In this document: piece by piece, positions 26,144 to 58,288 of the stretch
How positions within the stretch are numbered: the stretch's first letter is position 1
Layout of the letters: each line of letters begins with the position of its first letter
Virus record (IMG/VR): IMGVR_UViG_3300045988_128133
DNA length: 64,000 nt
Direction: 5' to 3' (one strand)
Source: a virus
The notes under the pieces: model-generated
Databases searched by the model: none
Told to the model about the DNA's origin: nothing
The model's input: only the letters and a program-made list of their open reading frames with translations
Made by a program: the position numbers and the translations under genes

Positions 26144-26258
26144 ACATTTCAATACAGCTGTACAATCCCCCAGCGGATTTCGTACATTGAAATGTCAGAG
26201 CGTTTAGATTGCGAGAATATACGGAAAATGTATATTCTCGCAATCATTTTATGGAGGA

Positions 26259-28371: not shown

Positions 28372-29104
28372 AATCAAAAAGATTCAACAGCTGGTCGGCG
28401 TGACCGCTGACGGCATTATCGGACCGAAGACCATTGATGCAATTCTTAAACGGCTGACCCCGGAATCCACGGGTACCGGGGATTCCGCGGGTACCGTGGA
28501 TGCTCATGAAATCCGCAACCGGATGGCCGCTAAAATCCTGAACATGGAGGACTACAAGATTACGGGGCCAGAATCCCTGCGGGTTACGCGCCTCCCCTCC
28601 GGCGATGGTGGCGGCACCTGGGAGATTGCAGGTATCTGTGACGGGATTGAACCGAAGGTGTTTAACCGGATTAAATCCCTGCTGGACAAGGGACTGCGGG
28701 ATGAAGCATGGGAAGAATGCCTTAGCTACGTACTGGAGAACACCTCCAAGATTGTAAGCTATCTTCCGAACTATGGTTTCGGCTACGAATTCATGGTACG
28801 CGACCTCGCGTTCAACATGGGTACCGGAGGTGCCGTCAATGTCATCCAACGCATGCTCAACTCTGTGGGAGATGCTGGCCTTACAGTGGATGGCAAATGG
28901 GGACCTAAGACTCAAGCCGCCCTACGAAGCGTAACGGATGTTATTCCAGAAGCTGAAGTTGTCAGGGGGCTGGACAGGGCGGCCCGTGCAAGGTATGAAA
29001 GCATTGTCAAGGCCAACCCTGTTAAGAAGAAGTTCCTTAAAGGTTGGTTTAACCGATGCGAAGCTCGTGTTAAGTTTGCCGAGACTATTATGTCAAGAAA
29101 ATAA
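28355..29104 (+). CDS. peptidoglycan-binding-domain lytic enzyme (endolysin-like)
   Basis: Two D-G-x-x-G-P-K-T PG-binding-like repeats, ADGIIGPKT and VDGKWGPKTQAAL. A terminator follows. Confidence 0.45.
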   Translation: MTQKAKIKKIQQLVGVTADGIIGPKTIDAILKRLTPESTGTGDSAGTVDAHEIRNRMAAKILNMEDYKITGPESLRVTRLPSGDGGGTWEIAGICDGIEPKVFNRIKSLLDKGLRDEAWEECLSYVLENTSKIVSYLPNYGFGYEFMVRDLAFNMGTGGAVNVIQRMLNSVGDAGLTVDGKWGPKTQAALRSVTDVIPEAEVVRGLDRAARARYESIVKANPVKKKFLKGWFNRCEARVKFAETIMSRK

Positions 29105-29133
29105 TTCTTTACAGCAATAAATTCATTTAGTAC

Positions 29134-29169
29134 CATGGCGGTGAGGTAAACCTTGCCGCCATGTTTTTG
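29134..29169 (+). terminator. rho-independent terminator
   Basis: CATGGCGG...CCGCCATG hairpin followed by TTTTTG. Confidence 0.55.
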
Positions 29170-29205
29170 TATAGTCTCGCAAGCGTGGATGCAAATGTCT
29201 GGACG

Positions 29206-29517
29206 ATGTTCCTGACGCGCATCGTTGATGAGATGAGCCCTGCGTATCTGGTGTTCGTAGGGCTTATTTACGTGGCGGCGAAGCTTGCCTATAAGTACCT
29301 TAGTAAAAAAATTGATTATACTCTTGACAAGGAGAAATCTTTTTTAGTACTTCTACAGGAGGCACTGCGGGTTATCTCTGAACTGGATGAAACTCTGGAC
29401 CAGCTCCACGGTAAACTGGATTCCCTGCGGAGTGGCCACGAAGAACTGTTAGAAATCGTCAAACACAGCGGCATGAACAATGAAGCTACTCCCAAAACTA
29501 TTCCGAAAAGAACCTGA
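29206..29517 (+). CDS. single-TM coiled-coil protein (holin/i-spanin-like), start at second ATG
   Basis: One TM, YLVFVGLIYVAA, then a coiled coil. Adjacent to the endolysin-like gene. Confidence 0.3.
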   Translation: MFLTRIVDEMSPAYLVFVGLIYVAAKLAYKYLSKKIDYTLDKEKSFLVLLQEALRVISELDETLDQLHGKLDSLRSGHEELLEIVKHSGMNNEATPKTIPKRT

Positions 29518-29992
29518 ACCAGAAGGAGTGATTAAGAACATCACCAGTCTGGCTGATGAGTTGCAGGTTAAATTACACACCTGCGGCGAACGCATTGCCA
29601 AGCGGAATCAGTTCTACGCGACTCTGCCCCTGGGCCGTGAAGGTGAAAGAAAGCTACCCAAGAATCAGTGGGTTTACTTTCTGCGTGGTTCGGTAGGTAT
29701 CAAGTATGTTGGAGAAAACCTCACAAGCTCTGTTACTTACATCCGAACACATGAAGAGATTAAGCTTCCCAATTTTATTGACAGCGAACGCTCACATAAA
29801 CTTCGTGTCATAAACGGATATATTATTGACAGAAGAACAAACCGGAAGTATTCTGCGGGTGAGTCGATAGACTTTCAGCGGGGAGAACCTATGCACTTAA
29901 CCATAAACGGATATGTGTGGATGACCTGGACACCCCCGCTTCCGGGTTCAACACTTCCGTTCTACCACTCAAATCATGCCTCTAATTCCTAA
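29480..29992 (+). CDS. hypothetical protein
   Basis: 170 aa. Confidence 0.3.
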   Translation: MKLLPKLFRKEPEPEGVIKNITSLADELQVKLHTCGERIAKRNQFYATLPLGREGERKLPKNQWVYFLRGSVGIKYVGENLTSSVTYIRTHEEIKLPNFIDSERSHKLRVINGYIIDRRTNRKYSAGESIDFQRGEPMHLTINGYVWMTWTPPLPGSTLPFYHSNHASNS

Positions 29993-32855
29993 TACAGGAG
30001 CATCAAACCCACAACCTCCGATAATTCCGATAGGAACCACGGACAGTTCATGGCGTAACGGGCATAACCCGGACCGTCCCATGGGGGAACCCATCATCAA
30101 TTTCCCCTATGCCGTAGTCAAGAACGTCATGTTCTTCGTGGAAAGGATTGTCAAGAATCCCAACGAATTGTCGGCAGAACTGGGTACTCCCTACAACCCC
30201 ACAGCGGGGACTACTTTCCTCCCCTTCATGCGTGAAGCTGTGCTTGTCCATGTCGAACCCGTAGCGGAAGACACGCGCCGCCACATCTATCGGTTCTACT
30301 ACATGGTCCCACCGCAGGAGCAGTATCGGTATAACATCCAGGATATGAAGAAGATTCAGGATGGCTATACACTCAAGGACACTGCCGCGGACGGGAACTT
30401 CATGAGCAGTGCCGCTGACGCTGAAGACCTCAAGGACTTCTATGAAATCATTCGTGAATGGGTTGAACCCACGGATTCCGCGTACACCCCGTTAGCCCTA
30501 GGGTCTTTCGACCCCAGCAACGAGAAGCTTGACCCTGACTTCTATGACCTCCATGATTATACGGCCTACGATGCCCAGCTGGTCTATGAAGAAGTTGGCC
30601 GCTTCGAGCAGGAACATCTCAACAAGTACTTCCGTAAAGTTACACGGGTGTATAAAACTCTGCCCGGCCCTGTCGTTAAGGAGTTCATGCCCAATAACAT
30701 GTGGGTAAAGGGAGACACTGTATGGGAAAACGGTGGGCCCGGAACTTCCGTACCGGAGAACGAATGGGTATCTCAGAACGCTATCAAACTTTCCCGCGAG
30801 GTGTGGGCCGCCCCACTGTGGGAGGGTGAAGGTGGAGCAGAGCCCGGACAGGCACGCATCCCTTTCATGCCCACCAAAGAGTTCGAAGGTAAACCTCTTA
30901 GCACTGGATGGGATAAGGGCACGTACCCCAGCCTCCAGAACTATACGGTGGTTACGATGTTCAAGCGCAATTCCTCCATCGTGGAGAATGAACAGCAGAA
31001 CAGCCTTTCCGGCAACTGTTGCAACCCGGACTCCCGGTTTGTGCGTTGCATCAATACCACGGTGACGACCAGCCAGTCAGTGGACTGGACGGCCAACGGA
31101 GACCTTCCATCCATTGAACCCCCGGAACCCGGTGAGAACTGTAGCCAGTGGAGAGTGGATAGTAGTGTCGTTGTCCGGGAAGGCTATAGCCAGAAGGAGA
31201 CGAGAAAGCAGTGTACCACTTACGAACAGATTGACGAGTTCTGGGAGAGCCAGTTCGACCGGATAACGAATCAGGTTTATCCGGTGCTTCGTAAAATCGT
31301 GCATGAACCCTCCACCGAGTTCGATAAGGACTGGCAGGAAGAAGGGTTCAAGAAATACACGGACTCCGTGGGTAACGTCTATTACGGACGCAAACTGGAA
31401 TCCCCGGTAACTGAGGTTTCCATATCCATCCCTGACACTGTGTGGGTTAAAGAGAACTACAGCCTCAGCGATTTCTCCGTTGGCGAGGACAACCCCAGCC
31501 CTACGGGATTGCTTTCTAACCTTAATGTCATCAACGGATGGAACGACCCCAGCTATCCTTCGTTCTCCAACTACTTCGCATTCACCTGCGAATTCACTTC
31601 CAACAATCCGGGGAGAGACAGGGGAACCGTGGTAACGGTCTATTACAAGAACAAACGCTGGTGGCCCATGTATGTGCAGAATAGCATGCCCGTGGAGCAA
31701 TCTCCTGGCACCATCTCTACGGCCAACCATTACTACAATGTCAACCCGGATGGCCCATGGTACACTGCGGACGGCCTTTATCGGATTAGCATGGAGGGGA
31801 TTATCTCCGACACGCTGTACGGTGAAGGAGTATCTGGCCAGACCTGGACGCTTCCCATAGGTTATATGGATGGTTCAGGGATATATAAGCGGGGAACCTA
31901 CAACCCCGAAATGAAGTTTACGGTTGGTTCTCTCCCCACGGGGATTAGCAAGGTATTCCTTGATGTCACTAACGGTCAGCTCAATATGCTGGTCTGGGTA
32001 GAGAACCCCAATGGCATCTCCATTAACGGGAACATTCCCATTAAGCTCAACGGCACCAAGATATTCGACATTGCAGTAACCTCTTCCGTGTCCTCATCTA
32101 ATGAGCCTCCTTCTGTTGTGACCCGCAATGGCGAGAAGAGCGAATACACGGATGGAACCTACTCATTGAAGGCGGCAGTAGCAAACCGGATTGAACTCTC
32201 CTACAATGGAACGAGATACCCTTACTTCCAGTTTGGTGCGACCGTAGCTACCTTGACCGGGAATACATTCAAGCTCCAGAAGAATACCAACGTGTCCCGC
32301 GTCGTACTCCGGCAGTGGGTGAACCCCTGTTACGCTGTTGATAGCTACATGCAGATTCCCGGCATTGGCTATTACCGAAAGTACACCACCACCATGAACT
32401 ACAGTTTCCCCGCAGTGCTGGGAAATGTTTCATGGATGGCCTGGAATACGAGGCCCGACATGTCGGGTAAACAGGGTGGCCAATACTTCCCGTCCACGAA
32501 CATGAAACGGGATTCCTACTCAGGCCCCTGCCGTGCCGTGGTGGAAGAGCTTTTCAGCCCGGACGGCTCCTGGCCCAGCACCTGGGGCCTGGGAACTTCT
32601 CCCCAGTTCACTACGGCCAGCGGATATTTCTCTACGCCGTTAGTGGACTTCCGTCTTCCGGCCTGCCTCCACACCCAGTTGAACTTTACGGTCACTATTG
32701 GAAACCAGGATGCCAAGTGGACTCCCGGAGTCTTCAATGCAACCTTCCCGGCAACCAGTGTTACCGACTGGACCTCCGTGACATCCTACTATGCATCCCC
32801 GTGGAACGGCGGCATGCTGTGCAAGAAAGTAACCATCTATCCTCCAACCGCATAA
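29976..32855 (+). CDS. large tail/baseplate or receptor-binding protein
   Basis: 959 aa, W/Y/N/T-rich and beta-rich. Confidence 0.4.
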   Translation: MPLIPNTGASNPQPPIIPIGTTDSSWRNGHNPDRPMGEPIINFPYAVVKNVMFFVERIVKNPNELSAELGTPYNPTAGTTFLPFMREAVLVHVEPVAEDTRRHIYRFYYMVPPQEQYRYNIQDMKKIQDGYTLKDTAADGNFMSSAADAEDLKDFYEIIREWVEPTDSAYTPLALGSFDPSNEKLDPDFYDLHDYTAYDAQLVYEEVGRFEQEHLNKYFRKVTRVYKTLPGPVVKEFMPNNMWVKGDTVWENGGPGTSVPENEWVSQNAIKLSREVWAAPLWEGEGGAEPGQARIPFMPTKEFEGKPLSTGWDKGTYPSLQNYTVVTMFKRNSSIVENEQQNSLSGNCCNPDSRFVRCINTTVTTSQSVDWTANGDLPSIEPPEPGENCSQWRVDSSVVVREGYSQKETRKQCTTYEQIDEFWESQFDRITNQVYPVLRKIVHEPSTEFDKDWQEEGFKKYTDSVGNVYYGRKLESPVTEVSISIPDTVWVKENYSLSDFSVGEDNPSPTGLLSNLNVINGWNDPSYPSFSNYFAFTCEFTSNNPGRDRGTVVTVYYKNKRWWPMYVQNSMPVEQSPGTISTANHYYNVNPDGPWYTADGLYRISMEGIISDTLYGEGVSGQTWTLPIGYMDGSGIYKRGTYNPEMKFTVGSLPTGISKVFLDVTNGQLNMLVWVENPNGISINGNIPIKLNGTKIFDIAVTSSVSSSNEPPSVVTRNGEKSEYTDGTYSLKAAVANRIELSYNGTRYPYFQFGATVATLTGNTFKLQKNTNVSRVVLRQWVNPCYAVDSYMQIPGIGYYRKYTTTMNYSFPAVLGNVSWMAWNTRPDMSGKQGGQYFPSTNMKRDSYSGPCRAVVEELFSPDGSWPSTWGLGTSPQFTTASGYFSTPLVDFRLPACLHTQLNFTVTIGNQDAKWTPGVFNATFPATSVTDWTSVTSYYASPWNGGMLCKKVTIYPPTA

Positions 32856-32859
32856 TCTC

Positions 32860-33597
32860 ATGGCGTTCATTACTAAATCCTATTTGACGTATCGAAACGT
32901 ATGCGACGAATTGTGTATGCTCATTACCAATACGCCGCCCTCCAAATCCAATGTTGACTTCCGCAGGATTCTGAAGGAAGCCCAGAACCTCCTGCTTAAC
33001 GAGGCCACGGTTTCCCCGGATTCCATGGCAATCCTTGATTTCGAAGGAGTTGAACGGAATGGAATCATTGCCCTCCCTGATGAGTACGATAGTATCGTTG
33101 CGGCATGGACACCGGGGGGACAACGGTATAACATCGTTGACCGGGCCATGTTCGAATCCAACACCTGGTTCCGTAGCGAGTACCCCCGCAGGCCGCACGG
33201 CTCACCCCCTCTCATGGTGGACATGGGGCTGAACGAGATGAACCTCCGTACCTATGCCGTACTGTCTGGTAGCAATGGCATCAATGACAAGGATATGGGC
33301 ATGACCGTTTCCGCGCGTTGCGCTCTCCGCGGTCTCTCCCTCAATGTCTATGATGATAAGGCATGGGAAGATAAGGAGGTTCGTATCTATCCCGGATGCC
33401 TCCCCGCCCTCAAGGCCATGATGCTGTCAGTGGTCTATAATGAACAGGGCAATACCCAGATGGGCACCGACAGCTATGGACTTGCGGTCAAGTACCTGAA
33501 CGACCACCTCCGCAAATATCGTCAGGGAACTTATCAGGCTCCCAACATTGTACAGAACGGCGGGCTGATGCAGAGCCCCGGCCTTAACCTCATGTAA
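32860..33597 (+). CDS. tail-associated protein
   Basis: 245 aa. Confidence 0.4.
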   Translation: MAFITKSYLTYRNVCDELCMLITNTPPSKSNVDFRRILKEAQNLLLNEATVSPDSMAILDFEGVERNGIIALPDEYDSIVAAWTPGGQRYNIVDRAMFESNTWFRSEYPRRPHGSPPLMVDMGLNEMNLRTYAVLSGSNGINDKDMGMTVSARCALRGLSLNVYDDKAWEDKEVRIYPGCLPALKAMMLSVVYNEQGNTQMGTDSYGLAVKYLNDHLRKYRQGTYQAPNIVQNGGLMQSPGLNLM

Positions 33598-33603
33598 ACC
33601 ATC

Positions 33604-34674
33604 ATGGCAACTCAATCCACAGATATCAGCAGTGAAGGGAAGAACCCGGCAACCAAGTCTCCCCGGCAGAAGATAACCGAAGAAGTCCTGCCCAAGGTGA
33701 ACCCGGATGTTCCCCTTCGTCCCGTAACCAATAACGACCCGAACAAACCAGTGGACGCTAAGGCATTGAACGAGGTAGCCGCGGCTAACAGCAACCGGGG
33801 GATTCAACGTCCCCCGGCATCCCCGGCACCCGCGAATCAGTATGGCCGCGGCATTACGGAACCTACGGTTCCGGGTGCCGTGGACCCGAACAGTCAGGCC
33901 TATGCGGAAGCACAACGTGCCAATTACCAGAAGCTCATGGCCCAGGGACCCACTGCGGAGGATAGGCTTCTCATGCGAGGGGTGGACCAGAATGTAAGCA
34001 GAGGGCAGATGCCCGTTGGTAGGGTACCAGGAGCCACGGCATCCCCGGTACCCACGGGTTCCGGTGCCACCCGTCCCACGGGTTCCGCTACTCCGGCATC
34101 GCTATCGCAGGAAGCTTTCGGCACAGACATTAAGAACAGGCTCAGCCCTGACGACTATAAGCTATATCAATCACTGAACCCGGCCAAGCAGACTGAGCTC
34201 TACAATAAATGGAAGGAACAGCAGGTAAAGCAGAACCCCTCCCTGCTCACAGCACCGACAGGTTCTCCGGCGGCCCCGGCGGCCCCCGCTGGTGCCCTAC
34301 CCTCCGGCGGCTCCCCTATACCCACGGCGCAGGTATCGCCGCCCGGACGTGATGAGAAAATGCTGGAGGTACTGCGTGACCCTACGGCAGACCCGCAGGC
34401 AAGGTCTCAGGCCAGCACCTATCTGAAGGTCAAAACCATGTACGCACAGAAGGCGAAATTCGGCAACGAGATTAAAGCTCTGGAACGGGCCAGCCGCGCA
34501 TATACACGCCAGCTGGGGAACATGTTTAAGAATCCCCTGAACAGGAGAGACCCGAAGTACCAGCAACAGTACGAGCACTGGAAGGCTCTCCGAAAAGGAA
34601 ATCCACAGGCGAAGCTCATCATGTTCAATGAGTTAATGAAGCGACCGGAGTTTGCTTCCCTCAGTTTCAAATAA
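33604..34674 (+). CDS. Pro/Ala-rich low-complexity protein
   Basis: 356 aa, P/A/G/T-rich. Confidence 0.4.
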   Translation: MATQSTDISSEGKNPATKSPRQKITEEVLPKVNPDVPLRPVTNNDPNKPVDAKALNEVAAANSNRGIQRPPASPAPANQYGRGITEPTVPGAVDPNSQAYAEAQRANYQKLMAQGPTAEDRLLMRGVDQNVSRGQMPVGRVPGATASPVPTGSGATRPTGSATPASLSQEAFGTDIKNRLSPDDYKLYQSLNPAKQTELYNKWKEQQVKQNPSLLTAPTGSPAAPAAPAGALPSGGSPIPTAQVSPPGRDEKMLEVLRDPTADPQARSQASTYLKVKTMYAQKAKFGNEIKALERASRAYTRQLGNMFKNPLNRRDPKYQQQYEHWKALRKGNPQAKLIMFNELMKRPEFASLSFK

Positions 34675-34704
34675 TATTGCTGACAGAAAAAGTTAGTATT
34701 TCTC

Positions 34705-34756
34705 TTGACCTTAGCCCCTGCTTTGATAGACTTAGGCAGTCCCTCGAAGCAGGGGC
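34705..34756 (+). promoter_or_regulatory. promoter TTGACC-N16-TAGACT interleaved with 10-bp-stem hairpin
   Basis: Arms GCCCCTGCTT (34714-23) and AAGCAGGGGC (34747-56). The -10 lies in the loop. About 30 nt upstream of the giant gene. Confidence 0.35.
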
Positions 34757-34787: not shown

Positions 34788-37700
34788 ATGGCTATTGACT
34801 TTACTACAGCTAGCCCGGCAGACTGGAACCCCAGTTCTGAAATCACCGGAATCCGAGAAGCCCGCGCCGCAGAAAAGCATGCGGCATGGCAACGGGGTCA
34901 GGAGCAGAAAGCTCTCGACCGTCAGAAGAAGGAAGCAGAAGAAGCACAGAAACAGGCCGTTAAAGGCGTAGAAGCGGAAGCGGATTTCTTCACTCACCTG
35001 TCCGGCGTACTGGACACCGAACGCAAGGAACAGGAAAAACGAGCCAAGGAACAGAAGACGGAAGCAAGGAAAGAAGTTACCGAGGCCCGTGCCGACATTC
35101 AGTTTGAGCAAGGGCAGGCTGACCGTGCGCGTGCTGAACGCGACCGGGATGTCAAATCCCTGTCCCGCCGCAACATGGGGCTCAACTTCGAAGCCCTTGA
35201 GGACATGACCGACTACGTTGGCCGCAGTGCCGATAGCTTTGTTGACCTGAAAGAAGGGGCCAAGGCTAACCCGCAGGTGATGGAAAAGCTTGGCAACTCT
35301 CTGGGTCTCAATGTCGTAAGCTCCAACTCCCTTACGCCTACCGACCCTGCATTCACTTCCCGGTTCGGCTTCTCTGTCGGTGCGGATGGACAGCCAGTTA
35401 TTACTGAAAAGTTCCTCGCTATTGCCGCCGACCGGAACCGTAGCAGTAAGGATGTAAGCACGGCGATTGCCCGGACTCTGGCCGCTGAACGGAAGAGCTA
35501 CATTAAAGCGAATACGACTGTGGCTCCTGACAGTGCCGCGAAAGCGGAAGCGGAAGCCCCGGAAACCATGGAAGCCGAAGAGATTAAGGCAATCATCGAC
35601 AGCATTCGCCGCGAGGATGTAAATACCTTCAATGCGGCACGCAAGGTTTACGACAAATATAATACGGCATCCACGGAATCCATTCAGGGTAAAGCCGCTA
35701 AACCCCGCGAGGCTAGCGTGGGGGAGCTTGGCGTTGGCGAATCCTTTGACACGGCACCTTCATTCACTGGGAATGTATTTGCTGAGCTCGCCAACTTGTC
35801 CAAGTCCCCCAGCACCATGTTCCGTCTCGTCCGCGACTACGGCAAATACGTAGCTGACACGGCATCCACGGTAGCCGCGGATGCCCGTGCCGCTGAGGCC
35901 GGGAAGCGGGCCGTCACTGCCGCGAAGACGATTGACAATCTAGTTAAGCAGATGGAGGACGAGTATGAGGGCATCAACTCCGTAGCCCTCCGGGATGCTT
36001 TGATGAACGAAGCCAAGGTTGCCGAGGCCGCCGTGAAACGGTTGGCCCCCATGGTTGACCTCGACGAGATGCGGGCCATGGCTGACAAGAAGAGCCATGA
36101 ACTGGGCCGCACCATTGAATCGGATTACCGCCGCGATTATGCTGACACGCTGTATGCCGAACTGGAGAAGCGCAATCCAGGATTGAGCCGTGACCTGATT
36201 CGCACGCTGGGAACTACGGAACTTCTCGACAAACATACCGTTGGACTGAAGAAGAGAGGAAGTCTGGATGACGCAGTAGCGGGAGCTATGAGCCAGTACA
36301 GAAGTGCGGCAGGCCAGGTTGCCGACGTTCTCACCTTCCAGCCGAAGGCTTCGGTAGGCAAAACCAGTGACCCCCTGAGTGCTATGGAATGGCGGCAGGG
36401 TGCGCGTGGCTGGGAATATGGCGTAGTTGGCGGTCCTACCTTTGAGGTCAGCACCGAACAGCTCCGCGACTACATGAAGAACTATGGGATTAAGAGTACG
36501 AAGGACGCGCTTAATTCCCTCAGTCATGCGGCGAGGCAGGGGGACCTCAACCTTGGCAGGGGTACGCTGTTTGCATACAACCCCCATACTAAGGAGGTAG
36601 ATACAAACGCCACGCTTCAATACAACCCCAACGCCCTGTACGATGATGACCTATTTAACCGTAGCGTCAATCAATTACAGGAATCCGGGGCGAATCCCGA
36701 ACTCATCGAGAGAACGATTGAACAGTGGAAGAAGGCCCGCACCAAATCCGCAAGCGAAATGGTCAAGCAGAACATGGAACTGGAAGAAACTCTGGGCGCG
36801 CTCCGCGATACCTGGATGGGAACTGGTGCCGGGTTTGCTGGAGGCTGGGTTATGGACCGTCTGGACAAGATGCTGTCCTTCAAGGAGTTCTATAACAGCG
36901 GCAAGGAGAATGGCCAGAGTGATGAGCAGATTCTTGCCGCATGGCAGAAGGAAGGACAGGGGGCTATTAACTCCATCCTGCGTGGCCTTCAAATCGGCGC
37001 ACACAAATTTGCTGACATTGGGACGGGTGCTGTTGCGGGCTCCCTTCTTTTCGCCTCCAACCTTATAGGCAGTGACACTGGCCGGGAAAAAGCCCGCACC
37101 ATGTGGAACACGCTGAATGAAAAACAGCAGGCAGAAGGTGAACTGGTCAAGGGGAATCTCATGGCTGACATGTCTGCGGAGATTGTCAACCTGGGATATC
37201 AAATGGTAGCGACCCATGTCGGTGGTACGGTTGGCAGTGTTGCGGGCCGTGCTCTGGAACGGACTGCGGTCAATGGTCTCATTAAGGCCAGTGCCAAAGT
37301 CATCGCCCGAAAGACGGAAGCCCTTGTCCCTGCCGCGCGTCCCGGCCTTGCTAGTGGTATTAGCGGCGGTGTCCAGCGTGTATTAAACCAAGCCGCCGCG
37401 ATTGACCTCCAGCGGGTTGGAGCTGGTGCCGGGGTTAATACCGTCATTGCCAGCCAGATAGTTCCGCAGGCATACTCCGAAATCTTCTATGCGGTTTACG
37501 ACCGTGAAATGGATGGTAAGGAACACACTGCGGAAAACCTCGAAGCCGCTCAGGCAAAGGCTAATCGCCGGGCCATGATGGGTGCAGGTATCGCGGGTGG
37601 CATGTCCGTCCTGATTAACAACCGTATGGGTATGGAATCCTTTATCCGTAAAGCAGTTGGAGCTAAAAACCTTCGCAGGGAAAACTGGTTCAACCGTGTG

Positions 37701-40700
37701 GATGACCGTCTTTCCAACTGGCGCAGGAAGAACTGGAAGGACATGACCAATGTGGAGAAGGTGAAAGCTGTATCTTCCTACCTGTACAGCTGTGCCAAGG
37801 TGTCCGCTGAAGGCGCAACCGAAGAACTCGCGGATGAGTTTCAGGAATGGGCCGTCACGGAACTGGCCAAGAACGGAGAGATTTCTGAACAGTCTATCGG
37901 TACGTTCGAAGGAGTCGTTGAAGTAGGAGCAAAGGTTGCTTTCCTTGGTGCGCTTGGCGGTGTCTATGGAGCGCGGATTGCAGGGGAGACCCCGGCCCAG
38001 TTCCAGTTGCCCGCTATCGAACCCACGGAATCCAAGGTATTCAGGGATGCGAGTCAGCTGGTGGATAGCACGGGCAAAGCCCTGGAATCCGTGGACCCCA
38101 CGGGACCCGCGGCACCCTTGCTTGAAACAGGAATGCGGACGATTGAAATCGCAGGGGATAGGGGAGACGTGGAACTGGTGGCAACTGAATGGGTAAACAA
38201 GACCATAACTGACGAGGCCCTACAGCTGACGGATGAGCAGAGAAAGCAATGGATATCTAGGGCACCTGCCCTGGGTATGACCAACTTCCAGTCTTTCCGT
38301 GGCTACGTGCAGGAAGCTTCCGACAGGTATCAGTACGAAGGCGAATCCGCCGCGGCTGAATACCTTGCGGGCGTTATTCGCGACCTGCCCAACACGATGG
38401 CCTATGCCAACGATACAAACGTCAGTGTCATGCGCTCCATGCTGACCGAAGCATTCGACGCAATGAAGAGCCGCGAAGCCAACGTTCCCCTTGATGACCA
38501 CCTCGACCTTCAGGGTACGGGGGATGAAAGCCTTGATGAAGCATCCGTCGTAATCAATACGCTGACCAATGAACCCACGGAAACCACGGAAGCCGTAGCT
38601 CCCACGGAAACCACGGAGACCGCGGCCCGTGAGGAAGCCAATAAGATAGTAGCTCCTGTGCAGAACTTCCTCGACAATGGTACGGGGAGAGAAGCCGCCG
38701 AGGAAACCGTAAATACTTTGGCCGCAGGGACGGCTACGTTTGACCCCAACACCGGGGCATGGCTAGCCAGCGGCTCCTTGGAACAGCGGGCAGAAAAGCT
38801 GGTGGTGCTTAATAGCATGACCAGTCCCACGGGCCCCGTAGTTACCACGAACACCGGGGAGAGTATTGTCATGACTCCCAACGCCAGTATGTATGCGCCA
38901 AGTGCCAACGCCAAAGCGGAAGAAGCTCCTACTACCAAATGGGGGAACGCCGTCATGAGCCTTGACCTGCCTACGGACGGGACTGGAGTCAATGGTATTA
39001 ACCTCCTGAACAGGTTGAGCGTCAACGCTACACCTGCTCAGAAGAAAGCCATTGAAGGATTGACGCAGGCTCTCAATGCCGCGGGCCTTGACCTCGCAGT
39101 CCGTATGAGCACAGCGACTGACGGTAACTTCTCCCCTGCCATGATTACCTACAATCAAGGTGCGGATGGTGAACTGGCTGGTGGCGTTATTGACCTCTTC
39201 ACCAACAGGGAGAACGCGGTGGAAGGCACTACGGGTACACTCATCCATGAAGCTATCCACCTGCTGGACCGACACCTGCGGAAGAACAATGCAGAATATG
39301 GCCGGGAAATGAGCAAGCTTCGCTCAGCTATGGCGGCTCGCTTCAACGACATCCATGCAGTCTTGCGGGAGGCTTACGACAATAGCCTTGACCCCAACGA
39401 GATGAACGCAATCGCCGCTGTCATGAACGACCTGGCCTACGGGATTAAGGGTGCTGACGAGTTCGCCTCTGTGGTCTTCTCCAACCCCGTCATCAATTCT
39501 CTGGTAATGGGATTCACCGGGAAGAATGCGGATATGGACATGCTTACCCGGTATGCGGAAACGACAGGTAAACGTAAGCCGATTCACAATCGTATCATCG
39601 ACTGGTTGCGCGACCTCTTTCATGAGGTTCGCAATGAAATGCAGAATGCGCCTGTTCTCGATGAGGCAGAATGGAACGCCTATGTCCAGCGCGTGGCCGA
39701 CGTAGCCCCGGAAGGTGCCTGGTATAGTCTTGACCGACCGGAAACCTATGCAGTAAATGTGACGGACTACACCGGGAATAAGCTGGGTAAATCCTATTTC
39801 AACCCCATGGCCTATGAGAGCGGCCTCTCCCAGCGCATGAGCTTCGGTGTGGCCGCAGAAATTGTAGGCTCTTCCTCCGGCAACTGGGCGACCATGTTCC
39901 GCAACGGTTGGCGCATGACCCGCTGGGGGCAGGGAGGTATCAACGTTCCCACCCCGGAACAGCGTCTCGTCCTACAAGAACAAATGGTCAACCTGAGCGC
40001 ATCCTATGAGCGCGTCAATAAGCGTCTGGGTAAGGTGAAGGAGCTTGCGGATAAGTATGTCCAGAAGAACAACCTCACCACTGATGCCCGGCAGAAACTT
40101 GCCTCTGCCATCATTGACACGGCAGGTAATCTGGACAATGACATCGACCCGGAAACCGTGGAACGTATTAACCGTGAAACGAATGCGGAGATTGCTCAGC
40201 TCAAGGAAACCCGTGACTACCGTATCAATGCGGCGAAGCAACACGTACAGAGGGTGGTTAATCAGAACGCTGAACTGATTCGTGCCGCCAACCTCATGGC
40301 CAACACCAGTGAAGGACGTGCATCCATCAATGAAATGATTCGTCTCCTTAACGAAGTTGGCCGGGAAGGATATGCATCTACGGTCAATGCCGAAACTATG
40401 GCTCCCGCTATGAACCAAAGGCTCACGGAATCCATGGATTCCCTGGGTTCACGGGTTCGTGACCTGGGGAATGCGGCTCTCGCCTCCCGCTACTATGCAC
40501 TGGCACGGGACACCAAGAGCTACATTCTGGACCAGGTGAATGGGGTGGAATCTCCCTTCACTCTGGATGAATTGCAGGAGGGCTGGGATAATCTGCGCTC
40601 CGACTACCTGCGTGACGAGCTGTCCAAGAACGTTGAAACGGCCAACATGCTCCGTGACATTAAGGAGGCTAAGGCTCAAGCTCGTGAATGGATTAAAGAG

Positions 40701-43700
40701 GCTAACGCGGAATACGCGCAAGCCACACGCCATACGGGTATTAAGGCAGACGGTACGGTCGTTGAATCCGGCATCGTTTGGAAGAAGCGTGATGCCGCCC
40801 TGCTGGAAGCCCGAAGGAAGAAGCAGGCTGAATTCATGGCTCGTCGTGAAGCTGGTGAAAAATACCTGAAGGAGCAAGGCGTAATCGGAAACCTCATCTA
40901 CAATGCAGTTGTCGATGCCCGCAAGGAAATCGCAGTAACGCAAATGGCTATCGCCCGCATCACGGGTGACAGCAAGATGGAAGACAATGCCAAGCGCATG
41001 GACTACCTGCATCGCACCTATCTGGCTGTGGGTAAGCACGCTGGGGACTACACGAAGACGATGCGGGAAATCATCGCCAATCCTAACGGTGAAACCGCAC
41101 AAGCCTTTAAGGGGCTTACCGTTCTGTTGAATGAAGCCGCGACGGCTCATGCCGAAACCCATCAGAGGGAGATGGCCGAAACCGTAAGCACCGTGCTGGA
41201 CAATATGCAGGCACTTGCAACCCTGCATGATGAACTGAACCTTGAGGTAGTGCCCGCAGGGGACACGGCTAACGAGAACAACGCACTCCTGTTCAATGGT
41301 GTTGCCAAGAACTTCAGAAGTCGCAATATTCTTGACTTCATCCATGACAACTATGGGGAAATTCAGTTGGCTTCTGACCTCAAGAACGGAATGAATATGT
41401 CCAGCATCTACGATAAGGCCATGTCCATGATTGTGCAGAGCGACAGGTACACGGCCAAACGTCTGGACAAAGTGAAGCGCAGGCTTCGCACGGAAGCCCA
41501 GGATAAATACATTGAATCCCTCCTACAAGGTGTGCCGGGCGATACGCTTCTGGACAAGCTGGGTTCCTTCAATTCAGGAGATGCTTTGGCCCACAGGATA
41601 AATGAAATCCTCCCCATGGTTCCGGTCAATGCCATCAACCAAATCTGGAATACCCCGCACCTGGATATTGAAGAGAAGCTGAACGACGTGGTGGACCTTC
41701 TCCGTAAGCAGGCAGAGATTCAGATGAACCTCAATGGTCTGGGCAATGTCATTAACGCTCAGGACATTAAGACGTTGGAATACCCCCAGCTCGCGGAACT
41801 GGCCATGGCTCATGCCAAGGAAGCCATTGACGAAGTACTGTCCAAGAAACGCACCCGTGAAGACGTAACGTCTATGCGGAAACGTGAACCGGAATGGAAG
41901 CGCAAGGCCATGCACGAACTCCACGATACTACCATTGGTGAAGCCATTGGCGTATTGCAGAACACTGTTTCCCTCCAGTCTAAACTGGCAGTGAATCAGG
42001 TGCTGTCTGATGAATATGCAACAGTGCTTAAGGACCAGGGGGTTGTAGTCGCGGAGGACAGTGCGGACCGTACCCCCGACATGGTGGAAGTCATGTTGAA
42101 GAATAAGCGTAATTCCCTGAACGGACTCTACACTACGCCGGATGTGGCTCGTGCCATTTACAAAATCTACATGCCCTCCGACGAAATCATGGACTCCAAG
42201 ACCAGCACGTATGAGGATGTCCGCAAGTACTGGAAGAGCCACACAGGAAGACCTGGCTTCCTCTCAAAGACGGGCGGCTACATCAACATGGCCACTCTTA
42301 TCGCCAGCCCAGGTTCCACCTTCCGTAACGCCTATGGTACTGCGGCTCAGATGCTTCATGCTGGTGCGTTCCCTGTGAAGGGGCTTAAGGACATTGGTTC
42401 CCTCGTGAAAGAATGGGGCCAGATGCACAAGCTCTACCTTAAAGCACAGGAAGGAGGCATTGGTGCGGAGTCTTCTGCTCAGAAGCTCCTACAGGCTGAG
42501 TCTAAATACAATGAGAAGATTCGCTACTGGCAGGAGATTGGTCTTCTTGATGCGGGGCAGGGTGAATTCCTTCGGAATATTTGGAAGTCCGAAGAGTTCG
42601 CGACAATGCAGGGAGAACTGGAATCCACGGATTCCGAGGATTCCTTCTATGCCTTTGCCGAAGCGTTAGAGGATAAGAGGTCCAAGACCACCATCAAAGA
42701 TGTGGCCAAGAAGGCAGGACATGGTGTTGCATACCCCGTGAAATTGGCCGCCTTTGCTTACGGGATGCCGGATGCCGCGGCTAAGATTGCGTTGTTCGGT
42801 AATCAGCAGGCACTCAGCCGCAAGCAGTTGGAGGTCCAGCTGGAACGGGCGACCATGAGAGCGGCCGCTGGGGAAGAACTCAATGCAAGGCAGAAGGCCC
42901 TTGTCCGCGCGGCAGGTAATGGTGAAGTGGCATGGAATGCGTATGTCGATAGGCATGCGGCTTCCAAGGTGAAAACCCTGCTTCCGACAGGTACGCGCAC
43001 CCCGAAGTGGGTGAAGTACATGGGGCAGTATGTTGCGCCCTACTTCATGTTCCAGTACCATACCTTCCAGTCCGCTATGTATAACGTGGGCTACGGCATG
43101 GAAGAAATTAGCGATGGTGTATGGGCTATGAAGAACGGCATGAGTAAGGACGGTGCCTACCTCGTAACCCGCGGGCTTGGCCGATTCATGGGTTCCGCGG
43201 CGGCTCTGACTGCCATGCCCATGCTTTCCCGCTGGGCTCTCATCACAGCGTTGCATACTCTTTATGGTGATGATGAGGACAAGATGCAATTCATTACGAA
43301 TGAGGGGGCACTCCGTAAGATGGCAGAGGCTGGACTCTTCCCGGAATATGACAAGTACGGTGACTTACTCGCCGTAGTGGACAAGGAAAGGAACGAGTTT
43401 ACCTACTTTAATCTTGACTATGTGAACCCCTACAAGAACGTGGTCAAGAGCTTTGGTACACTCTACAGACTAGCAGTCAAGTATGACGAAGACAAGTGGT
43501 CCAGCAATCCTATGGGTGAACTTCACAACCTGTTGGAAGGCACTGTGTTATCTCCGTCCATGGGGCTCGCTACCTTGTTTGAAGTGTTAGATGCTGAAGG
43601 ATTCCATTATCAGTATGCGACTACGGGCAATGAGAACGTGGACTTCATACCTGCGGTCGTCAATGCTCTAACCCTCACGGCGGGCTTCGAACCGTCCATG

Positions 43701-44387
43701 AGTGGCGGCCATACCTGGGAATGGGCTGAACGTCTGGCAACTACAGCGAATAGCAAACTCCCGGTCTATAGTTGGGGTGTCAAGTCTATCCGTTCTCTGG
43801 GTGGAGATACCCCCGACCTTAGCTGGGGAGCATTCGCCGCGCAGACGATTGGTACGGGGATGCGTAGGCCGAAGGACCTGACGGAAACCTTCGCTCAAGG
43901 GTTGAAGAATTCCCAAGCTTCGCTCAACCGAGCCAAGCGTATGACGATTCTCAAGCCGAACTACTATAAGCGAATGGAGTCCGGGGCTGACGTGGATGCC
44001 GTGGTTGCCGAGGAATCCGAGGCTATCATTAAGAGCTATACCAACGTGGTGAACGGGGTGCGCTTCGTCTATGGACTGAGCCGAACCTTGCCAGAGAATA
44101 TGAGGGATGCTGTCCTTGCCTCCGCTATTGAACGTTCCGGCATGAGTGCCAACAGGTTCAAGGCGGCCATGAGTGGCATCCTCCCTGAACTGATTAGCAA
44201 GGAGTCTGCCAAGGAAGCCATTGCTCGTCTCCAACTGGAAGATAAAAAGGCAAGCACGACGGAACGTGGTCATGAACTGATTCAGAAACAGATTGACCTC
44301 ATCCTCCAGCAGGCTGGAAGCGGTTCCGTGGATGTCAATGACAGAGCCTTGAGCCAGAAGGAAATTGATGGTTCTCTTCGACAGTAG
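34788..44387 (+). CDS. giant (3199 aa) multidomain virion/injection protein; tape-measure-like hydrophobic Gly-rich segments plus HExxH zincin motif
   Basis: N-terminal coiled coils, Gly-rich hydrophobic segments, and HEAIH at nt 39246-39260. Sits at the end of the tail block. Confidence 0.55.
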   Translation: MAIDFTTASPADWNPSSEITGIREARAAEKHAAWQRGQEQKALDRQKKEAEEAQKQAVKGVEAEADFFTHLSGVLDTERKEQEKRAKEQKTEARKEVTEARADIQFEQGQADRARAERDRDVKSLSRRNMGLNFEALEDMTDYVGRSADSFVDLKEGAKANPQVMEKLGNSLGLNVVSSNSLTPTDPAFTSRFGFSVGADGQPVITEKFLAIAADRNRSSKDVSTAIARTLAAERKSYIKANTTVAPDSAAKAEAEAPETMEAEEIKAIIDSIRREDVNTFNAARKVYDKYNTASTESIQGKAAKPREASVGELGVGESFDTAPSFTGNVFAELANLSKSPSTMFRLVRDYGKYVADTASTVAADARAAEAGKRAVTAAKTIDNLVKQMEDEYEGINSVALRDALMNEAKVAEAAVKRLAPMVDLDEMRAMADKKSHELGRTIESDYRRDYADTLYAELEKRNPGLSRDLIRTLGTTELLDKHTVGLKKRGSLDDAVAGAMSQYRSAAGQVADVLTFQPKASVGKTSDPLSAMEWRQGARGWEYGVVGGPTFEVSTEQLRDYMKNYGIKSTKDALNSLSHAARQGDLNLGRGTLFAYNPHTKEVDTNATLQYNPNALYDDDLFNRSVNQLQESGANPELIERTIEQWKKARTKSASEMVKQNMELEETLGALRDTWMGTGAGFAGGWVMDRLDKMLSFKEFYNSGKENGQSDEQILAAWQKEGQGAINSILRGLQIGAHKFADIGTGAVAGSLLFASNLIGSDTGREKARTMWNTLNEKQQAEGELVKGNLMADMSAEIVNLGYQMVATHVGGTVGSVAGRALERTAVNGLIKASAKVIARKTEALVPAARPGLASGISGGVQRVLNQAAAIDLQRVGAGAGVNTVIASQIVPQAYSEIFYAVYDREMDGKEHTAENLEAAQAKANRRAMMGAGIAGGMSVLINNRMGMESFIRKAVGAKNLRRENWFNRVDDRLSNWRRKNWKDMTNVEKVKAVSSYLYSCAKVSAEGATEELADEFQEWAVTELAKNGEISEQSIGTFEGVVEVGAKVAFLGALGGVYGARIAGETPAQFQLPAIEPTESKVFRDASQLVDSTGKALESVDPTGPAAPLLETGMRTIEIAGDRGDVELVATEWVNKTITDEALQLTDEQRKQWISRAPALGMTNFQSFRGYVQEASDRYQYEGESAAAEYLAGVIRDLPNTMAYANDTNVSVMRSMLTEAFDAMKSREANVPLDDHLDLQGTGDESLDEASVVINTLTNEPTETTEAVAPTETTETAAREEANKIVAPVQNFLDNGTGREAAEETVNTLAAGTATFDPNTGAWLASGSLEQRAEKLVVLNSMTSPTGPVVTTNTGESIVMTPNASMYAPSANAKAEEAPTTKWGNAVMSLDLPTDGTGVNGINLLNRLSVNATPAQKKAIEGLTQALNAAGLDLAVRMSTATDGNFSPAMITYNQGADGELAGGVIDLFTNRENAVEGTTGTLIHEAIHLLDRHLRKNNAEYGREMSKLRSAMAARFNDIHAVLREAYDNSLDPNEMNAIAAVMNDLAYGIKGADEFASVVFSNPVINSLVMGFTGKNADMDMLTRYAETTGKRKPIHNRIIDWLRDLFHEVRNEMQNAPVLDEAEWNAYVQRVADVAPEGAWYSLDRPETYAVNVTDYTGNKLGKSYFNPMAYESGLSQRMSFGVAAEIVGSSSGNWATMFRNGWRMTRWGQGGINVPTPEQRLVLQEQMVNLSASYERVNKRLGKVKELADKYVQKNNLTTDARQKLASAIIDTAGNLDNDIDPETVERINRETNAEIAQLKETRDYRINAAKQHVQRVVNQNAELIRAANLMANTSEGRASINEMIRLLNEVGREGYASTVNAETMAPAMNQRLTESMDSLGSRVRDLGNAALASRYYALARDTKSYILDQVNGVESPFTLDELQEGWDNLRSDYLRDELSKNVETANMLRDIKEAKAQAREWIKEANAEYAQATRHTGIKADGTVVESGIVWKKRDAALLEARRKKQAEFMARREAGEKYLKEQGVIGNLIYNAVVDARKEIAVTQMAIARITGDSKMEDNAKRMDYLHRTYLAVGKHAGDYTKTMREIIANPNGETAQAFKGLTVLLNEAATAHAETHQREMAETVSTVLDNMQALATLHDELNLEVVPAGDTANENNALLFNGVAKNFRSRNILDFIHDNYGEIQLASDLKNGMNMSSIYDKAMSMIVQSDRYTAKRLDKVKRRLRTEAQDKYIESLLQGVPGDTLLDKLGSFNSGDALAHRINEILPMVPVNAINQIWNTPHLDIEEKLNDVVDLLRKQAEIQMNLNGLGNVINAQDIKTLEYPQLAELAMAHAKEAIDEVLSKKRTREDVTSMRKREPEWKRKAMHELHDTTIGEAIGVLQNTVSLQSKLAVNQVLSDEYATVLKDQGVVVAEDSADRTPDMVEVMLKNKRNSLNGLYTTPDVARAIYKIYMPSDEIMDSKTSTYEDVRKYWKSHTGRPGFLSKTGGYINMATLIASPGSTFRNAYGTAAQMLHAGAFPVKGLKDIGSLVKEWGQMHKLYLKAQEGGIGAESSAQKLLQAESKYNEKIRYWQEIGLLDAGQGEFLRNIWKSEEFATMQGELESTDSEDSFYAFAEALEDKRSKTTIKDVAKKAGHGVAYPVKLAAFAYGMPDAAAKIALFGNQQALSRKQLEVQLERATMRAAAGEELNARQKALVRAAGNGEVAWNAYVDRHAASKVKTLLPTGTRTPKWVKYMGQYVAPYFMFQYHTFQSAMYNVGYGMEEISDGVWAMKNGMSKDGAYLVTRGLGRFMGSAAALTAMPMLSRWALITALHTLYGDDEDKMQFITNEGALRKMAEAGLFPEYDKYGDLLAVVDKERNEFTYFNLDYVNPYKNVVKSFGTLYRLAVKYDEDKWSSNPMGELHNLLEGTVLSPSMGLATLFEVLDAEGFHYQYATTGNENVDFIPAVVNALTLTAGFEPSMSGGHTWEWAERLATTANSKLPVYSWGVKSIRSLGGDTPDLSWGAFAAQTIGTGMRRPKDLTETFAQGLKNSQASLNRAKRMTILKPNYYKRMESGADVDAVVAEESEAIIKSYTNVVNGVRFVYGLSRTLPENMRDAVLASAIERSGMSANRFKAAMSGILPELISKESAKEAIARLQLEDKKASTTERGHELIQKQIDLILQQAGSGSVDVNDRALSQKEIDGSLRQ

Positions 44388-44401: not shown

Positions 44402-44450
44402 TTGACTTACAGAGGGCATGGGGGGTACAATCCTCCCATGCCCTCTTTTC
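44402..44450 (+). promoter_or_regulatory. terminator hairpin with embedded promoter TTGACT-N17-TACAAT
   Basis: Arms GAGGGCATGGG (44413-23) and CCCATGCCCTC (44435-45), followed by TTTTCG. The -10 (44425-30) lies in the loop. Confidence 0.4.
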
Positions 44451-45049
44451 GTATAGTACCCAATCATGTCAGAGCCACCCCTCCCGGTGGCTGGAAATTT
44501 ATTGTCCCGGAATCTATGAGCGTTCGACTGAAAGGTGTTAAGGTTGAAGGACCTACGCTTGAACAGCTCAGGAAAAACGTTACCCGCCTCTTCATCAACA
44601 ACGGGGAACCTTTCCGAAATGAAGCTTTCGAATCTGAACTATGCTCCTATCTCCCCCCGGAGTATTGTCAGACGTGCGGAGATAAGGGTATCGAGTGGCG
44701 GGAATATGAACCCATGTCTGCACGCAAAGTCCTGTCCTTCTTTGCCACGATGGTATTGTGGTATAGACAGGGGCACAGGTTTGTAAGCAGTGAAGAGGCT
44801 CGACGACGCTACGATATTTGCAGGAACTGCCCTCGTGCTACGGACGTACCTCCCCCAGGTTTGGATAAGGAAGGGTGTGCTACCTGCGGTGCCGAAGGGG
44901 CTGGAAGAAAATTCTTAAAAGAGAAAACACAAAATCTTGTGGACCTCTCTGGCGGGCGGCCTCCCTTATACTGCACCTTGTGTGGTTGTGACCTGACGGT
45001 GAAGGCCCACTTTGATATAGACTCTGACTGTTGGAAGAAAAATTCTTGA
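44438..45049 (+). CDS. Cys-rich (multi CxxC) protein; start uncertain
   Basis: YCQTCGDKG, CRNCP, CATCG and YCTLCGC pairs. The ORF-track start at 44402 lies in the terminator. Confidence 0.35.
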   Translation: MPSFRIVPNHVRATPPGGWKFIVPESMSVRLKGVKVEGPTLEQLRKNVTRLFINNGEPFRNEAFESELCSYLPPEYCQTCGDKGIEWREYEPMSARKVLSFFATMVLWYRQGHRFVSSEEARRRYDICRNCPRATDVPPPGLDKEGCATCGAEGAGRKFLKEKTQNLVDLSGGRPPLYCTLCGCDLTVKAHFDIDSDCWKKNS

Positions 45050-56084: not shown

Positions 56085-56149
56085 AATCTATTGTCTTTCT
56101 ATTGTTCGGTTGTTTTGTTCACCGCCCCTTATTGGCGGCTGATGTGGCT

Positions 56150-56177
56150 ATTTTAGCGGATTTGCGGATGTTGTCAA
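56150..56177 (-). promoter_or_regulatory. early promoter TTGACA-N16-TAAAAT (cassette A)
   Basis: Minus-strand read. TTTTGTCATACA lies at 56192-56203, an AT-rich UP-like tract, and a conserved leader hairpin CCGCC/GGCGG. Confidence 0.55.
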
Positions 56178-56185
56178 ATTATTTT

Positions 56186-56576: not shown

Positions 56577-56601
56577 TTATTTTTCAAGGTTGTATGACAA
56601 A

Positions 56602-57150: not shown

Positions 57151-57204
57151 ATTTAGTTTTTCTATTTGGTTTGTTCACCACCCTTGTGGGTGGCTGATGA
57201 AGTT

Positions 57205-57232: not shown

Positions 57233-57266
57233 ATTATTTTTTACTTTGTATGACAAAATGGATAAA

Positions 57267-58264: not shown

Positions 58265-58288
58265 GATTGATTGTTAGTAGGTTAAAGA

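Follow-up and report, generated by a model that had tools for sequence, protein, structure and literature searches.

The question posed by this locus is what a phage does with a single protein of 3199 amino acids (aa). The protein is encoded by the largest gene in the window, that is, in the whole 64,000-nucleotide stretch of IMG/VR virus record IMGVR_UViG_3300045988_128133 that was analysed, where an open reading frame (ORF) with an ATG start spans positions 34788-44387 of the + strand. The original prediction, made from the sequence alone, had proposed an ejected multifunctional protein combining tape-measure, peptidase or effector roles. In our view the gene is best explained, with a probability of roughly 0.55, as encoding a capsid-packaged internal virion protein (an ejection or pilot protein) that lacks an RNA polymerase and is the largest of a three-protein ejection set. 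Ejection is retained from the earlier proposal as plausible, given the position of the gene, a domain order like that of N4 gp50 and the analogous giant phi24B gp47, while the tape-measure part is given up. The features on which this explanation chiefly depends are the following.

34788-44387, + strand: giant gene, 3199 aa, last gene of the late operon; relatives of 3199-3470 aa lie on contigs of ~67-73 kb
38970-39722, + strand: predicted zincin-like metallopeptidase (MPTase) domain, aa 1395-1645, of which aa ~1415-1567 form the part homologous to N4-like C1
39246-39269, + strand: putative HExxHxxD active-site motif HEAIHLLD, aa 1487-1494; H, H and D invariant, E in 146/147
39459-39488, + strand: EFASVVFSNP, aa 1558-1567; carries the invariant Glu proposed as third zinc ligand and aligns in register with NEFMAW.L.N of the N4-like virion RNA polymerases (vRNAPs)

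The HExxH domain and its link to N4

Relatives of the giant protein were collected by a word-indexed search, which found 400. The best 120 of these 400, on which the description rests, are all ~3200 aa long, carry neither names nor Pfam domains and lie on contigs of up to ~71 kb. When 1.84 billion cluster representatives were scanned exhaustively with HMMER, aa 1290-2489 serving as the query, only 8 matches were obtained, two of which were distant full-length relatives (P0135, 3381 aa; P0136, 3239 aa), and searches seeded with this pair brought in further lineages. The family as assembled falls into four clades that are only 22-30% identical to one another over their whole length. A 437-kb contig listed for one relative (P0110) was absent from the returned loci, which were ordinary phage contigs of 40-82 kb. 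No homologue of the giant protein was detectable among GenBank phages (megablast, tblastn), and the whole protein had no match in Pfam (E<=1), PHROGs or NCBIfam. PDB sequences gave nothing meaningful against the single sequence, the full-length 3304-position profile or the domain profile; a Csm2 match (E~0.01) spans a helical stretch only and was discarded.

The single HEAIH zincin motif that had been noticed around residue 1487 lies in the only recognisable part of the protein. HEAIH (aa 1487-1491), within TGTLIHEAIHLLDRH at aa 1480-1494, is the only HExxH in the sequence, and H1487, H1491, D1494, Y1504, E1558, F1559, N1566 and P1567 are invariant across the four clades, which puts the motif well beyond chance. 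The domain signature is conserved as HExxHxxD...EF-x6-N. An Asp three residues past HExxH is also found in one widespread phage-type MPTase clade (PMC5512222).

AlphaFold2 (AF2) models of aa 1290-2299 and aa 2300-3199, built on an 18-sequence alignment, place this signature in a recognisable arrangement. A helix (aa 1416-1431) is followed by strands at aa 1436-1440, 1451-1455 and 1468-1470 and then by the HExxH helix (aa 1481-1500), which has a predicted local distance difference test score (pLDDT) of ~73-80; after three insert helices comes a helix at aa 1556-1565 that begins at E1558. The domain as a whole has a pLDDT of 73-86, with moderate to low confidence in the strand region. The zincin-like MPTase of polyvalent proteins is defined by a sheet of three strands, the helix with HExxH, inserts that vary and a further helix that bears a Glu (PMC5512222), and the predicted topology was assigned as zincin-like because the modelled order of strands, HExxH helix, inserts and Glu helix agrees with that definition. 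E1558 lies 67 residues past H1491, aligns with the Glu of NEFMAW in the N4-like proteins and is the candidate third zinc ligand. The original prediction had raised the possibility that the HExxH region lacks a third ligand or a zincin fold; what was found is an invariant Glu on a later helix and a predicted zincin-like topology. Pfam scans of individual members gave sub-threshold matches only, but six of the 18 families matched are zincins (M90, M91, DUF6782, M78, SprT-like and M13), the best of them being M90 (E=0.005).

The C-terminal region of N4 gp50 carries an HExxH domain of its own (C1, aa 2124-2375) (PMC5512222; PMC13434306). Nine full-length Schitoviridae vRNAPs, assembled as a comparison alignment, conserve HE[LM][VI]HA.T...NEFMA[WY].L.N. 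When the family domain was aligned with the Schitoviridae C1 region by HHalign, a probability of 89.6% was obtained (E=1.9e-6, 148 columns), with HExxH and EF-x6-N both in register. Ten column-shuffled template controls gave at most 0.1%. Among 22 native 300-aa windows of the vRNAPs only the two containing C1 scored (77% and 89.6%), the others remaining at or below 2.1%, and with single-sequence templates N4 C1 reached 31% as against 1-6% for two HExxH regions of phi24B gp47. The link appears at the level of profile-profile comparison, where we regard homology of aa ~1415-1567 to the C1/MPTase domain of N4-like vRNAPs as shown; in plain HMMER searches it was not significant and could not be told apart from reversed decoys. 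The domain thus combines HExxH on a predicted helix, a Glu on a predicted downstream helix, a predicted three-stranded sheet before them and profile similarity to an accepted member, features by which the MPTase superfamily is recognised. Together with its conservation, these support a domain of zincin-like predicted topology and a putative peptidase, much as originally suggested.

The similarity to N4 is confined to this domain. When 400-aa segments of the family were slid along the N-terminal domain (NTD), RNA polymerase (RNAP) and C-terminal domain (CTD) of the N4-like proteins with HHalign, the peptidase domain was the sole match. An apparent similarity to the N4 gp50 NTD (family 217-336 against N4 830-947, 5.5%) was rejected, as the residues are not conserved in Schitoviridae and the profile-profile probability is 0.3%. 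Likewise, a 249-aa peptidoglycan (PG)-binding protein of the same phage hit the N4 gp50 NTD in BLAST (E=8e-4), yet gave only 0.1% in profile-profile comparison.

It could be argued that the HExxH domain is a degenerate remnant without catalytic function, in which case the protein would have a purely architectural role in ejection or in an inner body. In N4, gp50 is packaged in unprocessed form and its C1 has no reported proteolytic activity (PMC5512222; PMC13434306), and one member of the present family has HKxxH. However, the H, E, H and D of the motif and the downstream E are all kept at 22-30% identity (E1488 in 146/147), which is typical of a working metal site, and a remnant is in our judgement unlikely.

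Genome context and gene order

The window represents most of a ~72-kb phage genome, because a contig of 71,872 bp, NODE_1 of its assembly, encodes the identical 3199-aa protein. Its giant gene closes a long + strand late operon that begins with replication genes (a helicase C-terminus and a PD-(D/E)XK exonuclease) and includes a weakly recognisable large terminase, and it converges on a - strand block encoding an NAD-dependent ligase and ThyX. The features that surround the gene are listed here.

29976-34674, + strand: three syntenic upstream genes encoding proteins of 959 aa (beta-rich, Trp/Tyr/Asn/Cys-rich), 245 aa and 356 aa (Pro/Ala/Ser-rich, with a helical C-terminus)
34704-34756, + strand: promoter-like element, TTGACC at 34705-34710 and TG plus TAGACT at 34724-34732, overlapped by an inverted repeat
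44411-44455, + strand: intrinsic terminator, 15-bp stem (hairpin 44411-44446), 6-nt loop and T-run, 24 nt past the stop codon

Gene order is strictly conserved in all four clades: a PG_binding_3 enzyme, two small genes, a ~850-960-aa gene, a ~245-aa gene, a ~356-421-aa gene, a ~110-nt gap, the giant gene and the end of the operon. The three genes immediately upstream keep an identical order and similar sizes throughout, and by their position their 959-, 245- and 356-aa products are candidates for a tail or plug protein and co-ejected partners. The gene had been placed at the 3' end of a tail block; it is indeed the last gene of the late operon, but no recognisable family among the preceding genes identifies them as tail genes.

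The promoter/hairpin composite upstream and the terminator downstream, both claimed originally, are present. The 113-nt gap before the giant gene holds a sigma-70-like TTGACC-17-(TG)TAGACT (34705-34732), with which a 9-bp inverted repeat, GCCCCTGCT/AGCAGGGGC (34714-34722 / 34748-34756), overlaps. A gap of ~110 nt and a partly kept promoter-like core (TTGAC / TGnTA) recur in distant relatives (loci L004 and L005) whose giant protein is only 23-30% identical. Just past the giant gene, a 215-aa Cys-rich ORF (44402-45049) has a called TTG start that falls inside the terminator hairpin (44411-44446). Probably its true start lies some way past the called one, or the ORF has separate transcription from a TTGACT-18-TACAAT site that overlaps the hairpin.

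Between clades the 959-aa and 245-aa neighbours are 40-45% identical while the giant protein is only 22-30% identical, and judged by these identities it evolves markedly faster (34788-44387) than the genes beside it (29976-34674). Such rapid change is often shown by conflict proteins and would suit a non-virion late protein whose peptidase acts in the producing cell, for example a scaffold, a maturation factor or a cytoplasmic anti-defence or host-takeover factor. A promoter-like element and a terminator of its own could further allow regulation apart from the structural genes, and packaging is itself an inference. On the other side stand the strictly syntenic position at the end of the structural operon, which is kept across the family, and a linker-separated domain plan that agrees with that of N4 gp50. 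We know of no precedent for the late synthesis of a 3199-aa protein that serves a cytoplasmic role. Moreover, the characterised MPTase giants of such size are all virion-delivered (PMC5512222; phi24B, bioRxiv 10.64898/2026.04.10.717836). A role in the producing cell is consequently considered rather unlikely, and packaging in the virion remains the preferred reading.

A probable lysis cassette lies within the late operon at 28355-29992. It encodes three proteins, namely the one of 249 aa with PG_binding_3 domains, one of 118 aa whose single strongly hydrophobic helix makes it holin- or spanin-like, and one of 170 aa; N4 likewise has lysis genes inside its late operon. Further upstream, at 8490-13754, the gene sizes of 759-106-396-419 aa parallel those of the N4 portal (763), gp58 (115), gp57 (405) and major capsid protein (401). 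These head-module genes have no sequence similarity to N4, the best being the 419-aa protein against gp56 (E=0.05), and the portal- and capsid-sized proteins found nothing among PDB sequences, so that portal and capsid assignments are made here by size only. Other proteins of the phage showed no sequence or profile similarity to N4 proteins either.

The phage lineage is deep-branching and uncultured, with no GenBank homologue of its giant protein and a terminase only 26% identical to P22-like terminases. It is also widespread, an unannotated ~72-kb lineage present on hundreds of metagenomic contigs in which family libraries recognise almost no structural protein. One 73-kb relative (L004, carrying P0142) has an IS605-family OrfB/TnpB (Cas12f-like) gene inserted among its early genes (25580-26791).

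Protein architecture and the polymerase question

The zincin-like domain is the only recognisable part of the giant protein, leaving ~90% of its length without a recognisable relative. The remaining regions were delimited as follows.

34863-35192, + strand: N-terminal stretch, aa 26-135, highly charged, Pro-free and helix-prone
37017-37967, + strand: five uncharged Gly/Ala-rich segments of 19-22 aa, aa 744-1060, conserved in character; candidate membrane-interacting part
38520-38777, + strand: low-complexity linker, aa ~1245-1330, Pro/Ala/Glu/Thr/Val-rich and length-variable
39945-44384, + strand: orphan region, aa ~1720-3199, predicted to be almost entirely alpha-helical (AF2)
42972-43082, + strand: K.L.PTG.RTP.WV...P.F.F..HT..S..Y, aa 2729-2765, the most conserved block of the family

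Two descriptions of the N-terminal half in the original prediction need adjustment. A charged, helix-prone stretch is present where extended coiled coils were proposed, but at 45% charged and 15% hydrophobic residues and with weak heptad occupancy, aa ~26-135 looks more like a charged single helix than a coiled coil. The Gly-rich hydrophobic segments are real and those clustered at aa 744-1060 are conserved in character, but they are only moderately hydrophobic (mean Kyte-Doolittle 0.8-1.4) and the first of those originally quoted (~aa 680) is unconserved beyond close clades. An invariant acidic motif, EG..EE..DE...W, lies at aa 1008-1021. By analogy with the lipid-binding NTD of N4 gp50 (PMC13434306), aa 744-1060 is a candidate for a membrane role.

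The low-complexity linker occurs in all clades, at a length of 105-150 aa and with 61-66% PAETSVG, and just downstream of it (aa 1343-1383) the AF2 pLDDT falls below 50. Beyond the zincin-like domain, aa ~1720-3199 matched N4 gp50 nowhere along its length in HHalign; in position and character the region is comparable to C2 of the N4 gp50 CTD. Foldseek searches of both AF2 models against the PDB returned only coiled-coil/solenoid noise (E>=0.2, TM<=0.11). Taken together, the N-terminal part, linker, peptidase-like domain and ~1500 aa of orphan helices parallel the domain plan of N4 gp50 minus its polymerase.

This architecture also bears on the tape-measure role proposed originally, in which the protein of a long-tailed phage, with an embedded peptidase, would set tail length and form an envelope channel. 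Great length, a predominantly alpha-helical aa 1720-3199 and uncharged Gly/Ala-rich segments would all suit a tape measure protein (TMP), and family searches did not establish the tail type of the phage. Tape measures usually specify ~0.15 nm of tail per residue, so that 3199 aa would imply ~0.48 um of tail for a phage with a 72-kb genome. Giant examples do exist, such as the 5002-aa TMP of P23-45 (bioRxiv 10.1101/2022.12.01.518664). However, neither a disordered linker of variable length nor a globular peptidase in mid-protein fits a ruler well, and the sole homologous domain belongs to a podovirus ejection protein. The gene order is equally unfavourable, as the giant gene is the last of its operon, with the terminator directly after it and without distal-tail, hub or fibre genes beyond; a fibre-like 959-aa gene lies upstream instead, and the lysis cassette separates the head genes from the giant gene. 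No TMP, tube, sheath, chaperone, Dit or Tal family was detected with Pfam, PHROGs or NCBIfam. The tape-measure role is therefore not supported and is considered quite unlikely beside that of an internal ejection protein.

The kinship with N4 makes it necessary to ask whether the giant protein is a vRNAP or other nucleic-acid polymerase too divergent to recognise, equivalent to N4 gp50 or crAss-like gp66. A ~72-kb genome, the size and position of the gene and the sizes of the head-module genes all recall N4. The protein also shares C1 with the N4 vRNAPs, which are always fused to MPTase domains according to Iyer et al. (PMC5512222), and the AF2 models start only at aa 1290. The original prediction had seen no polymerase motifs, and their absence holds up under motif, HHalign, PDB-sequence and Foldseek tests. 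No 400-aa segment of the family reached 5% HHalign probability against the N4-like RNAP domain (N4-like aa 1000-2110), and the full-length family profile found no polymerase among PDB sequences. The only DxDxD, DNDID at aa 1783, was rejected as an RNAP metal site; it is DNDIE in P0008 and absent from P0135 and P0136. The modelled two-thirds of the protein are almost free of beta structure. No double-psi barrels were seen in the models of aa 1290-3199, aa 1-1289 having been checked by motif only, and Foldseek of these models against the PDB found no T7/N4-type or two-barrel polymerase, although structures of N4 mini-vRNAP and phi14:2 gp66 have been solved (PMC13434306).

The early promoters are a further point against a polymerase of this kind, as the early genes have sigma-70-type promoters and not hairpin promoters of the N4 type. 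In nine early promoters the -35 box is exactly TTGACA, the -10 box is near consensus, the spacing is 16-17 nt and a hairpin follows; five of the nine match the consensus at 11/12 positions. Host RNA polymerase may serve early transcription, because the early genes carry these near-consensus promoters, and could start the infection. Overall, a hidden polymerase is considered very improbable, and an ejection protein without one remains the better account.

Several observations are made beside these promoters. On the - strand between 56150 and 61407 (56177, 57232, 57671, 58635, 59665, 60602 and 61407), and also at 63216, near-consensus TTGACA-16-TAAAAT sites have an A/T-rich stretch upstream. The accompanying hairpins are GC-rich (e.g., CAGCCGCCAATAAGGGGCGGTG), and promoter and hairpin form repeated intergenic modules of ~100 nt before small early genes; promoter and hairpin are combined in the same way upstream of the giant gene. 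A conserved leader, AAnAGAAAGAcAATAGAtt, directly precedes the ATG of at least eight such genes (- strand, 55500-61360). A Shine-Dalgarno-like motif precedes only 7/79 ORFs in the window, which is odd beside classical sigma-70 promoters; this scarcity suggested a Bacteroidota host, but early promoters of the classical TTGACA/TAAAAT type contradict it. At 61520-61741, in or beside a 149-aa ORF (61349-61798), 9-nt units are tandemly repeated in two arrays, one of TCCCACGGT (x ~5) and one of GTGGAGTCN/ATGGGAACC units; they could be iterons, origin repeats or a repetitive peptide. Between small + strand ORFs at 62561-63299 there are five or six + strand copies of a ~26-33-nt element, TGTCAAG(A/C)(A/G)AAA(T/A)CGAC(G/A)(C/T)GCGGC, which may be a second type of regulatory repeat.

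Several points weigh against the ejection-protein reading itself. Packaging and ejection are what we infer from gene position, synteny and the domain shared with N4; the terminase is the only structural protein in the window recognisable by family libraries, and the 959-, 245- and 356-aa upstream proteins have no similarity to N4 gp51-55 or gp64-67. The AF2 models cover aa 1290-3199 only and are of moderate confidence, with a mean pLDDT of 66 (aa 1290-2299) and 63 from the 18-sequence alignment. Within the domain, the relative P0153 lacks a fourth His, H1496, and P0149 has HKxxH in place of HExxH. In the latter (L005, 10001-20227) the motif reads HKAAH, not HEAAH, while its sisters P0150-P0152 retain the Glu; a sequencing variant or an allele without catalytic activity could account for the change.

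If the giant protein is an ejection protein, a few copies would be packaged in the capsid and, on adsorption, would follow the two smaller proteins through the tail. The flexible linker would let the remainder pass the portal and tail as separate subdomains, while the N-terminal ~1240 aa, with their charged helix and Gly/Ala-rich segments, would engage the envelope or inner membrane after ejection. The zincin domain would act once assembly or injection has taken place; its most plausible substrate would be the giant protein itself or a partner, a host target being less likely. Early transcription would be left to the host RNA polymerase.

A more tentative idea, possible but with the odds well against it, is that the family is an RNAP-less sister of the giant ejection protein of the N4 type, or preserves its ancestral form. 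The scaffold, made up of an N-terminus that engages the membrane, a linker, the zincin C1 and a huge helical body like C2, would then have come first, with a T7-like polymerase later inserted between linker and C1 in Schitoviridae. If this were true, a function common to giant ejected proteins, either a conserved one in translocation or channel formation or an entirely new enzymatic one, would reside in the ~2900 orphan residues, among them the invariant K.L.PTG.RTP.WV...P.F.F..HT block.

Comparison with known systems

Few systems are known in which giant proteins are injected with phage DNA (the N4-like and crAss-like polymerases, the P1 Dar proteins and phi24B gp47), and it has yet to be explained how phages package a protein of >350 kDa and pass it through a tail. 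Among smaller ejection proteins, T7 gp16, of 1318 aa, is the largest, inner-membrane component of the podovirus DNA ejectosome. As is proposed for the giant protein, it is encoded last in a run of three genes for internal proteins, of which it is the largest, and it is mostly helical with an enzymatic entry domain (in part PMC13434306). Unlike it, T7 gp16 carries a lytic transglycosylase and not a zincin, and no sequence or fold match between the two was found (PDB sequences, Foldseek). The two-barrel virion RNAPs (crAss-like gp66 and the P23-45 TMP-RNAP) differ in having an invariant, metal-binding DxDxD loop within a double-psi beta-barrel, whereas the DxDxD of the giant protein is unconserved.

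The MPTases of polyvalent proteins (PMC5512222) resemble that of the giant protein in their mid-position in a very large protein. The known ones are delivered with DNA, as would be the case here. However, the giant protein matches no MPTase-PolyVal or MuF_C Pfam model and none for the LPD domains that mark large polyvalent proteins such as phi24B gp47 and the P1 Dar proteins. No known effector domain was recognised in it with Pfam, PHROGs or NCBIfam, and with the MPTase as its only recognisable domain and ~2900 aa without assignment, polyvalent status is not demonstrated.

A closer parallel is provided by the podovirus giant gp47 (vb_24B_48) of the Stx phage phi24B, which is 2811 aa long in the preprint (bioRxiv 10.64898/2026.04.10.717836) and 2807 aa when translated from GenBank HM208303. 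It was found in virions by proteomics, is invisible in cryo-electron microscopy and has been proposed to be a capsid-packaged ejection protein (bioRxiv 10.64898/2026.04.10.717836). Like the giant gene it is the last late gene, following that of a 421-aa protein, and it has metallopeptidase motifs and Gly-rich N-terminal stretches. In contrast to the giant family, which has none of these domains, phi24B gp47 has clear LPD5, LPD1, MuF_C and LPD38 (1e-17 to 1e-49, same Pfam library). With HHalign probabilities of only 0.6-6%, homology was rejected and phi24B gp47 is treated as an analogue.

N4 gp50 remains the most instructive comparison. In this protein of ~3500 aa (structures 9PNR, 9PNQ) a low-complexity linker of ~100 aa joins the lipid-binding NTD to the RNAP. 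C1 with its HExxH follows, and then C2, a mostly alpha-helical region of ~110 kDa without a structural homologue; a beads-on-a-string mode of travel has been proposed (PMC13434306). Like the giant protein, it is a single polypeptide encoded by the last gene of a late operon, after smaller genes for ejection proteins (candidates in the present phage), converging on a replication module in a genome of ~72 kb, and in both a low-complexity linker precedes an HExxH domain and a large, mostly alpha-helical region. Unlike N4 gp50, the giant protein has no T7-like RNAP domain and no detectable NTD or C2 similarity, its motif is HExxHxxD where the N4-like proteins have HExxHAxT, and its phage has early promoters of the sigma-70 type where N4 has hairpin promoters. 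The family may therefore serve as a natural 'minus-RNAP' comparison, separating the parts of such proteins needed for packaging, ejection and membrane insertion from those needed for transcription, and the comparison with N4 could also reveal the role of the conserved but functionally unexplained zincin domain.

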